Below the pieces are notes generated by a model. It saw only the letters and a program-made list of their open reading frames with translations. It ran no database searches and was not told the origin of the DNA. A stretch of DNA of 61,009 bases from an uncultured bacterium (GTDB lineage Bacteria > Omnitrophota > Omnitrophia > Omnitrophales > Aquincolibacteriaceae), in NCBI GenBank assembly GCA_964482725.1, contig CAYZYT010000014.1, positions 1 through 61,009 on the forward strand. Reading direction: 5' to 3'. A program made the position numbers and the translations under genes. This document shows, in pieces, positions 52,101-58,250 of the stretch (its first letter is position 1; each line of letters opens with the position of its first letter).

Positions 52101-55100
52101 ATCAGGTACGCGGCATTGAACGGGGCGATCATTTCATCTTTCACCCAGCTATCTAAAAGCATTTCGCGCAGCTGATCCACGAACATCGGCGGAATGAACG
52201 CGACAAGATAAGGAAGATATCGCTCTTTGAAGATCCGGACCGCTTCCATGCCCATGATCTTTTCGGGATCGTGTTTCCCGGCATGCTGCTTAAAGGCCTC
52301 CGCAAGGAATTTCATCGCTTCGGCGTATTTGCGTTTCTTATCATTCTCCCCGCTGAAGAACACGTGGAATGTCTTGAACTCCGCATCCGATCCGAATCCT
52401 TCCGTGCTTCTTACTTCCGATCGATGATGGTAGAAACCGCTCTTTTTCCTGGACGTGCCCTGCTCGCGAACGATCAGGAAAATAAGGATCGTTCCCCCCA
52501 CCACCATACCGGCCCCGGAGAGCATCTTGATCGCATGGCTTTCCCCGAAGACACCCAGGGATCCCGCCACGGAACCTGCCACAAGCGCTAAACTCATCGG
52601 AAGCATCAACGCGTGTTTTAAAAAGCGCACATCCTGGTTTCTCATTTCTGAGCGGGATGCCGCGGCTATGACGCGAAGCTCGTTTCGCGTCTCAGCGCGG
52701 GCGGCGTCTTTCGTGGCGGCTGAAGACAAGGAGCGAAGAACTCTTTCAAGCCCGTCCTTTTTATTCCAGGAAACAACCTGTCCATTGATCGCGACATCGT
52801 CTCGCCCCTGCGGAAGCGCTTCGACGCCGAATGGCTTGAGCCCTTTAATAAGATCTTCGCGGCTTGCTGCGTGAAAGTTTTTTCCTCCTATGCTTATCTC
52901 GACACGAGATAAAAGTTCTTCGCGCACAAAGATCTCGTCATTACCGCGCTTTGCTCTTCGGAGTTCTTTGAAATAGGGCTCAAGAAATGATTCGTCTACG
53001 TCCTGCTGCGGATCGCGGTCCGGGGCCGCCATGTCTTTCCGGATCAATTGCTCGGCCTGCTTACGTGTTTTCGGATCCGCGAACGCCACGCTCGTCAAGA
53101 AATCGTCATCAATGCGGTTGAGTTCCGCCTGGATCTGCGCCTTCAGGTCCTTGTCAGATACTTTTGCATGATCAGCCCTTAAGTGAGCGGCTTGAAAAGC
53201 AAGTCCGGAGATATAACTGGCCTCTCTAAGCTGGTTGAGCCGCCCCAGCGTCGCTAAAACCCTGGGCGAGTACGGAACGCGCCCCGCTTCTTCCTCCGCT
53301 CTGTTTTCCGAGCTTGGAGATCCCGCTTGCCCTGCGCCCTTCCTCTGCTTTGAAAGACCCTTGCCGTCTTCATGCAATCTTCCCAGAACTCCGACCGCGA
53401 TCTGACGAGTAGCGGGATGAAGCCTTAGAGCGCGCAATCTTTTAAGCATGGCCTCGGAAACTGCCGTCGTGCCGATTCGGACAAAAGCGTTTATAGCTTC
53501 CCGGATAAAATCCTGGCTCGGTTCACCCGTCAACGCTTCCCGCTCGATCCCGTGCAGTAGCTTAATGATAAAATCTTTCTCAGTCACTGCCCCGGACGAA
53601 ACTGCCGACACCCGCCCCGCAAGACCTTTGCCTCCTTCATGCAATCCTCCCAACACCCCGATCGCGATCTGACGAGCAGCAGAACTGGACGTTTGAGCGC
53701 GCAATATCTTAAGCATCGCCAAAGAAACCGCCGGCGTTCCAATGCGGAAAAAAGCATCTATGCTTTCCCGGATAAAACCCTGACCCGGATCAACCTTCCA
53801 TCCTTTTCTTTTGATCTCCCGCACCATCCCCGCGATCAAATCCTCCTTCACCTCACCAGCGCCAACTCCTTCCGCCCGTGTTTCGGAACGCGGCGTGGCC
53901 CCGGCTTGAGATTGCCGTGCCTCCAAACGAGTGGCGGCGACAAAATTAACGCGAATTTTCTCGGCGCCTTCACGACTAATCTGTCCTACGATCCCGGCGA
54001 CCCGCTCGCCCGCGCTCGCCCATTCGCGGCGCCACTTTTGGGGCGATACGTCCTGCCAGAAACGAAGATCGCTGCGAACGAGGGCAGCCTGGTGCGATGT
54101 CGAAACAGCCCCGGAGCCTAGAAATGAGGCGAGATAGTTTTTCTGGGAATCGGCGGTGATCTCCGTGATGTTCGGCGTGATGCCAATATAAGAATTTCCG
54201 GAAGAGACGATCGCCTCTTTGAATCCGGCGGTATGGAAACCTCCCGTAATAAGGACCGCTTTTGTTTGCTTGCGGTCACGCATCTTCGCGAGAGCGTTTT
54301 TCATCATGAGGTCTTCGCGCTTGACCGCTGTTTCATAAAACCGCACAGCCGTCTCAAAAAGCGCGGTCACCTGCTCGAGCCGGGAGGACGCCAGCCCAAG
54401 GTCCGAAACAATTTTTCCGGGAGTAAGACCCGACATCTTGAGGCCCCGGAATTCGTTGCGATCAAGTTCGAGAGCGAACAGCTTTTTAAGAAGACTGTAA
54501 CTTCGGAGAATATCTACCAGTTTCTGTTCCGGTGCGGTTTTGATAAGCCTCTCAAGGATCTTCAGGGACAGGGCGCCGATCTCACGATGAAGCACTTCGC
54601 TTTGGATCTCGCTTAAAAGGATCAGTTGCTGCAGGCGCAGACGGAAAACAGGATACGGCTCGAAGGAGTAATCCTTTGGCAGAAGATCCATGAGCCTTTC
54701 AAAGGCAAATCGGGTCTTATAGACAGGAAGGTCAGAGGGGGTCTTGTAGTCGAGAAGGCTGGTAATCTCCTTAACAAGAAGTTCGGGAACCTGTCTCGAC
54801 CGAAGGTCCGCTAAAAAGGCCGCCTGCTCTTTGCGAGCTTTTCCAGGATCAATCTGAGAGTCGATCTTTTTCAGGCGGAAATACCGGACGAGGACCGGCC
54901 AATTCAACTGTTCACGCATGTCTTCAAGGTCTACCTTGAGTTCGCCCGCCGCCGCCTTCTTCAGGAATGTCATCCAGTCCTGCATCGGCAGACGTTGCTC
55001 TTCAAAATCAATTTCTCGGACCAAGAATTCCCTCAAAAGCTTGTTCAGCTTCTGGCCCGCGGTCTTTTGCCATTGAAGATAAAAAGCCTCCAGAAAGCTC

Positions 55101-58250: not shown

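Follow-up and report, generated by a model that had tools for sequence, protein, structure and literature searches.

A shared N-terminal module of giant Omnitrophota proteins as a candidate hydrolase at recurring junction motifs

Contig CAYZYT010000014.1 (NCBI GenBank assembly GCA_964482725.1), which derives from an uncultured bacterium of the family Aquincolibacteriaceae in the phylum Omnitrophota, carries two divergently transcribed genes within the 61,009 nucleotides analysed here (hereafter the window). One of them encodes a giant protein whose gene-sized modules are delimited by a short recurring motif, the junction, and the other encodes a much smaller protein, hereafter the neighbour. 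We have found that both proteins begin with a homologous module, hereafter the head, and that this head defines a very large family of modular, exported proteins, which is undescribed to date and has no Pfam model. The initial annotation of the window, made from the letters alone, had taken the neighbour for a minimal version of the giant, and the shared module for a Tiki/ChaN/erythromycin-esterase-like hydrolase that might process the junctions. Its core observation proved correct and applies far outside the window as well, its assignment of the head to this superfamily is plausible, and its idea of the function is speculative.

The shared head and the family that it defines

Residues 10-466 of the neighbour align with residues 26-550 of the giant in one collinear BLASTP alignment (22% identity, E=5e-12, with amino acids (aa) 1-800 of the giant as the target), and a hidden Markov model (HMM) built from 63 neighbour orthologs matches the giant head with E=4.4e-29; judged by these comparisons, the similarity of the two heads lies far beyond chance. 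The collinearity of the first ~450 residues of the neighbour with the N-terminus of the giant, as initially annotated, thus holds, the homologous part comprising ~450-520 residues, and the three motif pairs quoted in its support are all present, i.e. IQIQDVHAHATAQQNI with IHIQEAHANYDAQTNI, VALEGAW with LILLEGAG, and VTGGFHTDG... with ITGGFHTAG.... The arrangement of the two genes on opposite strands with a gap of 277 bp is likewise borne out by the coordinates of the open reading frames (ORFs) (Table 1).

An exhaustive phmmer search with the giant head against 1.84 billion representative sequences, clustered at 50% identity, retrieved 6,280 clusters at E<=1e-3, 3,363 at E<=1e-10 and 567 at E<=1e-30, so that the family comprises several thousand clusters. 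Most of its members come from Omnitrophota, others from Elusimicrobiota, Auribacterota and one metagenome-assembled genome (MAG) of the Planctomycetia. The counts per representative given below rest on the best 147 of the 6,280 clusters. In these, the head always starts between residues 5 and 122, the proteins are 299-7,823 aa long (median 2,478), and a classical Sec-type signal peptide precedes the head in 130 of the 139 members with a complete N-terminus, the median net charge ahead of the hydrophobic region being +3. The architecture consists of a Sec-type signal peptide, a head of ~450-520 aa, a short linker, 1 to ~30 gene-sized cargo modules and a C-terminal module. When 100 proteins with R-S-E-x-R-type junctions were split at the motifs and the resulting 905 modules clustered, the head turned out to be the only universal module (99/100). 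Two unrelated families of C-terminal modules were present in 28 and 18 of these 100 proteins, respectively, the last module of the giant belonging to the first of them, and the other cargo families were each present in at most 7, the cargo being hypervariable. An HMM of the last module of the giant, built from six sequences, matched the extreme C-terminus of 30 of the 147 representatives. Sixty diverse heads, which share only ~20-25% identity, have the residues H77, Q83, E105, G106, Y394, R400, G423, G424, F425, H426, P446 and Y458 in common without exception (the numbering is that of the neighbour throughout), and the first acidic position, two residues before H77, is D or E in 54 of the 60.

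The neighbour belongs to a distinct, conserved ortholog group, for which we found ~106 full-length homologs of 690-800 aa with 32-87% identity, all of them from Omnitrophota and free of Pfam domains; every named homolog is annotated as 'Candidatus Omnitrophota/Omnitrophica'. The neighbour of the window shows both marks of the group, a full-length match to the head and a family-specific tail, the tail HMM being specific to the group. A weak resemblance of this tail to the last module of the giant (aa 7964-8217) had also been suggested, and this claim found no support. BLASTP gave no match between the two, the neighbour-tail HMM matched none of the 147 giants nor the giant of the window and found only neighbour orthologs, jackhmmer failed to connect the two tails in either direction, and hhalign yielded P=0.09 when the profile of the giant tail had 6 sequences and P=0.038 when it had 39 (probability 0.6-1.4%). 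The giants have at least two such C-terminal module families (for example in P0167, P0248 and P0262), and neither of them is detectably related to the neighbour tail. The description of the neighbour as a minimal giant is therefore right for the architecture, which includes a signal peptide, a head, a linker, a C-terminal module and an end of the form [KR]-[SA]-A, and wrong for the homology of the tails: the neighbour is a one-cargo form of the giant architecture with a tail of its own. The LSELR that had been pointed out behind its head is present (aa 491-495, followed by a tail of 242 aa), and it is not a true copy of a junction. The conserved core is Q-T-L-S-x-x-x-N, the consensus QTLSELRN of the family has an invariant Leu where the junctions have an invariant Arg, and the E-L-R part erodes in distant orthologs. 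Three residues, R123 and K125 (in IPTSREKQLLA; aa 123-125, 56403..56411 on the plus strand) and N166, are invariant in the neighbour group only and absent from giant heads, and are possible determinants of a neighbour-specific function.

Fifty loci with a neighbour ortholog were recovered from GTDB species representatives, and the whole set comprised 78 loci (L001-L078), in which giants were read within 10-kb flanks. At 29 loci, a divergent ORF located 150-400 bp upstream of the neighbour ortholog begins with a paralogous head, exceeds 3,000 aa and leaves the 10-kb flank; the giants at these paired loci contain 3-14 copies of R-S-E-x-R per ~3,200 aa, compared with ~0.08 expected. Additional head-bearing giants with 2-6 copies of R[SAT]ExR were seen only in MAGs that have a neighbour ortholog, and the head-bearing giants of other MAGs had no copies; both phylogeny and the pattern-based search confound this co-occurrence. 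In some genomes (those of L062, L074, L075, L076 and L052), two or three large head-bearing genes stand in tandem on the same strand.

Junction motifs and C-terminal ends

The giant of the window contains 20 copies of R-S-E-x-R and 4 of R-A-E-x-R, where ~0.2 would be expected. None of its Pfam domains is split by a junction, and each lies inside one inter-motif module; these domains are PHP (aa 1267-1408), URO-D (aa 1920-2171), starch-synthase GT5 (PF08323) together with GT1 (aa 2524-2952), and an S-adenosylmethionine-dependent methyltransferase (PF08241, aa 4067-4212). Across the 147 representatives, i.e. 428 thousand residues of head-bearing proteins, R[SA]ExR occurs 933 times compared with 24 expected, the median module is 214 aa long, and 99 of the 147 proteins have at least three copies; headless control frames had 5 R-S-E-x-R compared with 3.1 expected. 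The giant of the window and its relatives are thus multi-module ORFs in which a recurring short motif delimits the modules at domain boundaries. The sequence logo of the junction is R-[S 89%/A 11%]-E-[V/L/M/A/T]-R, with small residues at positions -1 to -3, acidic or small residues after the motif, and no extended conservation. From the end of the head to the first junction, the median distance is 66 aa, and this distance stays within 150 aa in 91 of 99 proteins of the R-S-E-x-R type; only 2 motifs were found inside heads.

A second motif, [A/G]-[A/S]-S-L-G, takes the place of the first in six representatives (P0168, P0199, P0214, P0252, P0261 and P0271) and in four giants of the locus set (L061, L073, L075 and L076), with 5-13 copies per protein next to 0-1 copies of R[SA]ExR. 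Its sites number 85 compared with 14 expected, are mutually exclusive with R[SA]ExR, and start directly after the head. A second junction motif that has the same spacing and excludes the first shows that the architecture is general. There are also giants without any recurrent motif, several of which keep one R-S-E-x-R-like site directly after the head. The tandem genes of L075 apparently differ in junction type, one having seven [AGS]xSLG sites and the other two.

An internal Shine-Dalgarno sequence or start codon was considered as the meaning of the junctions and rejected, since the x codon could only inconsistently serve for initiation and the motif is not followed by Met, Val or Leu. The junctions of the window show a codon bias: the first Arg is encoded by CGN in 24 of 24 copies, the Ser by TCN in 20 of 20 and never by AGY, and the last Arg by AGR in 13 of 24, compared with 24% AGR overall. 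This bias may reflect a common descent of the junction copies or a constraint at the nucleotide level.

Some modules are very small. At aa 1021-1113 of the giant (about 52421..52699, minus strand), RAETR at 1021 and RSEMR at 1036 lie only 15 aa apart, and the latter is followed by a module of 77 aa that consists almost wholly of two hydrophobic helices. Other modules with a single helix begin at aa 1692 and 5142, so that the cargo includes miniature membrane proteins. The stretch after the first junction (aa ~640-1020, about 52700..53840, minus strand) is built of ~95-aa repeats that are HEAT-like in appearance and follow the pattern ...FIRE[SA]I[DN]AF[FV]RIGT[PT]AVS...L[KR]...GVLG[GR]LHE[GD]GK, and the relative P0122 has HEAT Pfam domains directly after its head.

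A further regularity, which is a new observation, concerns the C-termini of the head-bearing proteins, which take the form x-[S/A]-A. Ninety-six of the 147 representatives end in [S/A/M]-A (RSA, KSA, HSA, SAA, TAA, TMA and others), and most of the others seem to break off where a contig ends. In the 78 loci, 541 frames were complete and at least 250 aa long; 40 of them end in [KR][SA]A, and 39 of these 40 are neighbour orthologs or giant/head-bearing proteins. Within the neighbour family the ends are KAA (25), KSA (10), KSV (9), RAA (4) and others. The x-[S/A]-A ending is common to three unrelated tail families, and is found in giants of the R-S-E type, of the S-L-G type and without a motif as well as in the neighbour family. 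The natural end R-S-A of the giant resembles the first three residues of R-S-E-x-R, and would fit a mimicry of the cleavage product if the cut fell within or just after R-S-E; we only infer such a mimicry.

Fold of the head and its possible role at the junctions

AlphaFold gave confident models of both proteins, with a predicted local distance difference test (pLDDT) score of 85.1 for the neighbour, and a pLDDT of 87.7 and a predicted template modelling (TM) score of 0.82 for the giant head. Both models show the same succession of a strand, a strand ending in [D/E]xH, a helix, a strand ending in EG, helices, a strand, a helical insertion of ~250-300 aa, a strand ending in GGFH, a helix and a strand. 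In the neighbour model, the strands 69-74, 101-104 and 418-422 end at the conserved residues, and those of the giant head do likewise. A 2His/2Glu layout was found in this way, in which H77, E105 and H426 (of GGFH) are invariant and each directly follows a predicted strand, the first acidic position being a partial exception.

The same order, strand-[D/E]-x-H, strand-E-G and strand-G-G-x-H, is seen in the TIKI superfamily (Tiki1/2, TraB/PrgY/GumN, ChaN, EreA/B/C, Bcr135/136 and RRSP), with which the heads also share the His-Glu pair and the second His. The catalytic set of RRSP has been described as E3900-x-H3902, E3930 and H4030, and the corresponding pair of Bcr135 as H85-E113 (PMC6254334). 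Furthermore, the Ere proteins have a parallel-sheet alpha/beta core with a helical insertion, as predicted for the head, and Tiki, PrgY and ChaN are extracytoplasmic, as the head is predicted to be behind its signal peptide. The head differs from the superfamily in its ~300-aa insertion, in a first acidic residue that is often Thr, in additional invariant residues (Q83, Y394, R400, P446 and Y458) and in the lack of a significant match; moreover, it always stands at the N-terminus of very large multi-module proteins, a context undescribed for the superfamily.

The only recurrent Pfam match of the heads is PF04187 (ChaN, 'Tiki superfamily'), which was hit by 8 of the 60 diverse heads at E<=10, the best at 0.009. 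The E-value was 0.13 for the giant head of the window, 0.0059 for the consensus of the whole family, and 2.9e-4 for an artificial consensus with the insertion deleted, whose 21.3 bits lie below the cut-off of 27.7. The neighbour of the window had no Pfam match, and a match to PF04187, PF01963 or PF05139 at the curated threshold was not reached. When the giant head was compared with 350,542 PDB chains by Foldseek, the erythromycin-esterase structures 3b55 (rank 3), 2rad_B and 2rad_A (ranks 10 and 19) and EreC 6xcq (rank 24) were retrieved with E=0.7-2.6 and TM values of 0.12-0.25, nothing in this search having E<0.2 and all Foldseek matches having E>0.1. These structures were the only alpha/beta proteins that recurred near the top of the list, and by our own estimate, which is not a statistic of the tool, chance is very unlikely to have brought two independent proteins of the small Ere family into the top 24. 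The full-length neighbour model retrieved no Ere structure in the top 50 of its Foldseek list against the PDB (Rossmann, GT-B and coiled-coil noise), the giant head matched viral structures at noise level, and sequence profile searches of the PDB with the neighbour family, the 60 diverse heads and the insertion-deleted core gave nothing significant. Aligned by hhalign with the single sequence of E. coli YbaP (TraB family), the core profile placed TGGFH on GALH with P=0.097. A similarity of the consensus to DUF1722 in the helical insertion (23.4 bits) was set aside as one of helical composition, because only 3 of the 60 real sequences match it, and weakly.

Three independent weak signals, i.e. 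the ChaN matches, the Ere structures and the order of the His/Glu/His set, are therefore suggestive of one superfamily and of no other, and the initial assignment of the module stands to this extent, with every search remaining below significance. Placement of the head in a non-hydrolase family, which had been named as an outcome that would speak against the assignment, did not result from any structure or profile search. We think it quite probable that the head truly is a remote member of the Tiki/TraB/ChaN/erythromycin-esterase superfamily; on sequence and modelled structure, it is most likely a highly diverged member that keeps the His-Glu pair and the second His (H77, E105 and H426).

As for its function, the head would in our reading be a site-specific endopeptidase. 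It would first cut the junction just behind itself, as a leader protease in cis, and would then cut further junctions that are exposed in the same compartment, and the stand-alone neighbour would act in trans or as a partner. That the head is such a leader endopeptidase acting at the junctions is a reading to which we give somewhat less than an even chance. It builds on an argument by elimination: since the head is the only universal module, the next best reaching 28/100, it is the only protease candidate encoded within the protein itself. The idea gains from the universality of the head, from the junction ~66 aa behind it, and from the existence of a second motif. What is likely the active site is invariant in the heads, and the TIKI superfamily includes the site-specific endopeptidases Tiki and RRSP (PMC6254334), which also counts for cleavage by the head.

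Several results weigh against this reading. In the sequence and structure searches, significance was reached for no known family. In 41 of 130 heads of the R-S-E-x-R type, Thr stands in place of the first acidic residue, two positions ahead of the first His. The catalytic residues are fully conserved in the heads of giants without a recurrent junction motif, so that the conserved activity of the head cannot be solely the cleavage of R-S-E-x-R. Junction type is not monophyletic on head similarity, the heads of the S-L-G type being polyphyletic, and no column of the head alignment splits the S-L-G from the R-S-E type. A crude topology derived from hydropathy, with transmembrane helices of the giant at 1050, 1079, 1715, 4701, 5145 and 5280, puts URO-D, GT5/GT1 and the methyltransferase together with their junctions in the cytoplasm, and export is predicted for the head as well as for the neighbour; an exported head could reach only some of the junctions if others lie on the cytoplasmic side. 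About one third of the neighbour orthologs (~16), mostly the most divergent ones, do not lie beside a giant. Finally, the LSELR of the neighbour belongs to a Q-T-L-S-x-x-x-N element, and this pseudo-junction does not covary with the motif preference of the partner giant, as seen in L016, where the giant has R-A-E-x-R only and the neighbour ortholog still has TLSELRN. The occurrence of the module widely without R-S-E-x-R-bearing partners had been named in advance as a result that would tell against a junction-processing role, and this has come about in part, because the head also leads giants with [AG][AS]SLG or with no recurrent motif, and keeps its catalytic residues invariant there as well. 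The universal head and the closely following junction thus speak for a junction-processing enzyme, and the headed giants of other types, the lack of covariation and the compartment mismatch against it, so that this part of the initial annotation stays speculative.

Many of these results would be expected if the head were an exported Tiki/Ere-like hydrolase or binding domain with another conserved role, possibly linked to the universal C-terminus, an explanation that we take as a serious contender without thinking it the probable one. Such a head might act on the envelope or on the surface of a host or prey, or might recognise or process the C-terminal x-[S/A]-A, and the junctions would then be cut by a protease encoded elsewhere, or would be uncut linkers or docking motifs. 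Whatever the junction type, a signal peptide, a head and a C-terminal x-[S/A]-A always come together; the invariance of the catalytic residues where no junction motif exists, the lack of covariation of the head with junction type, and the mismatch of compartments for junctions that flank cytoplasm-type enzymes fit this explanation as well, and the superfamily does hold non-proteases, such as the Ere esterases, the haem-binding ChaN and the inactive PMT (PMC6254334). It leaves the tight placement of the first junction behind the head unexplained, however, and neither a further universal module nor a conserved neighbouring protease gene was found.

A non-catalytic role of the head, as a leader for the targeting, anchoring or folding of the giant at the membrane, is rather unlikely; His/Glu/His would then be a binding site for a metal or ligand, as in ChaN, and the similarity to Tiki/Ere would be convergent or too remote for a prediction of function. 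In favour of such a leader, no database match reaches its threshold, the first acidic position varies, a large helical insertion dominates the domain, and the head always lies directly behind the signal peptide. Residues H, E, H, R, Y and Q that stay invariant at ~20% identity are nevertheless typical of an active site, and the only recurrent weak matches are to a hydrolase superfamily. That the similarity of neighbour and giant is a mere recent local duplication without functional link, as their adjacent and divergent position could suggest, is very improbable and is contradicted by conserved synteny and depth of divergence, since the heads are only 22% identical, the neighbour forms a separate ortholog group (~110 proteins, 32-87% identity) with its own tail, and the divergent pairing is kept in 29 loci from different MAGs.

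Compared with known systems, a head that acts as leader endopeptidase would most resemble two kinds of processed proteins. The MARTX toxins are likewise secreted and thousands of residues long, and a single processing domain is built into them beside several unrelated modules of gene size; for the giants such a domain is proposed here. The MARTX effector RRSP is itself a site-specific endopeptidase of TIKI fold, which unlike Tiki does not depend on a metal. The MARTX processing domain is a cysteine protease activated by inositol hexakisphosphate, whereas that of the giants would be an N-terminal TIKI-like candidate protease, and the giants differ further in their sharply defined five-residue junctions, the absence of RTX repeats, a cargo of mostly metabolic-type enzymes and small membrane proteins, and a cleavage that is putative. 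In viral polyproteins (pestivirus Npro, potyvirus P1/HC-Pro), an N-terminal leader protease has its own cleavage site directly behind it, and short linear motifs delimit the proteins. The giants differ from these in their cellular host, in a leader with a signal peptide and another fold, and in that their processing is putative.

Giant genes of the 'multi-enzyme metabolic cluster' type have been described from the same phylum, next to Archaeovorin and dockerin types, and their Pfam content (PF08323, GT1 and PF08241) matches that of our giant (bioRxiv 10.64898/2026.06.07.730766). Whether giant proteins of Omnitrophota persist as single chains or as cut pieces is an explicit open question, the cleavage points having been called unknown (bioRxiv 10.1101/2023.11.21.568195), for which candidate motifs are now named, 24 in the giant of the window and 933 in 147 relatives. 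C39 and S8 peptidase domains have been proposed for the cleavage of giant proteins (bioRxiv 10.1101/2023.11.21.568195; 10.64898/2026.06.07.730766). In the literature, which was incompletely searchable, we found no paper that joins Omnitrophota with polyproteins, and no mention of the head, of the R-S-E-x-R and A-A-S-L-G junctions or of the C-terminal x-[S/A]-A.

A possible, if doubtful, wider picture is that secreted polyproteins are the form in which Omnitrophota and related ultra-small bacteria express whole sets of proteins. Such polyproteins would consist of a signal peptide, a Tiki-like leader protease and up to ~30 modules freed at R-[S/A]-E-x-R or [A/G]-[A/S]-S-L-G, the resulting pieces would have small-residue C-termini mimicking x-[S/A]-A, and the 737-aa paralog would be a trans-acting or regulatory partner. 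If true, cells would here have an equivalent of the polyprotein expression of viruses, or the giants would form a new class of proteins that deliver multiple effectors. This picture can be tested on one candidate enzyme domain with three residues, a conserved stand-alone paralog and a C-terminal signature, and, if processing were confirmed, it would establish a bacterial polyprotein strategy and allow the module boundaries in giant ORFs to be annotated automatically.

Features and surroundings of the gene pair

The features of the two genes are collected in Table 1.

Table 1. Features of the giant gene, the neighbour gene and the region between them
Feature	Position	Strand	Remarks
Giant ORF	31106..55759	-	8217 aa
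Neighbour ORF	56037..58250	+	737 aa
Divergent intergenic region	55760..56036		277 bp, AT-rich; promoter-like hexamers are consensus matches only
Giant signal peptide or signal anchor, Sec-type (predicted)	55622..55759	-	aa 1-46; positive N-terminus, hydrophobic stretch, ...APIAQA|AN; before head
Giant head module	54080..55597	-	aa 55-560; alpha/beta core with ~300-aa helical insertion; BLASTP/HMM homology, AlphaFold
Giant head candidate catalytic residues			IQEAH (aa 88-103 region), LLEGAG (aa 118-125), TGGFH (aa 504-512)
First junction motif RSETR	53876..53890	-	giant aa 624-628; ~70 aa past head end
Example junction peptide			GATPRSETRAEGV
Giant last module	31109..31885	-	aa 7959-8217; begins RAEVR, ends ...ATARSA-COOH; conserved C-terminal module family
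Giant C-terminal end	31109..31117	-
Neighbour signal peptide-like N-terminus	56037..56120	+	aa 1-28, MAGFPAKKFITVSILLTLTLATAPLAFT; hydropathy peak aa 9-27
Neighbour head module	56169..57431	+	aa 45-465; AlphaFold model and conserved columns
Neighbour D75-x-H77 in IQIQDVH	56247..56294	+
Neighbour E105 in VALEGAW	56340..56360	+
Neighbour Y394/R400 in FYAGVKSRDE	57213..57242	+
Neighbour H426 in VTGGFHTDG	57297..57323	+
Neighbour STLSELRN	57501..57524	+	aa 489-496; at the place of the giants' first junction
Neighbour tail	57525..58247	+	aa 497-737; predicted alpha/beta domain (model secondary structure); ends ...SAKAA-COOH
Neighbour C-terminal end	58239..58247	+

The flanking genes are ordinary, and include a menaquinone biosynthesis gene and genes for an M24 peptidase, a transketolase and a gamma-glutamyltranspeptidase, with an Exo_endo_phos gene downstream of the neighbour. 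The M24 peptidase and the gamma-glutamyltranspeptidase, which lie several kb off, are the only other protease genes found near the locus. The Exo_endo_phos family gene (58880..59647, minus strand) is convergent to the neighbour, and a minus-strand ORF of ~260 aa occupies the same position in many of the ortholog loci, which suggests that conserved synteny extends beyond the giant-neighbour pair.

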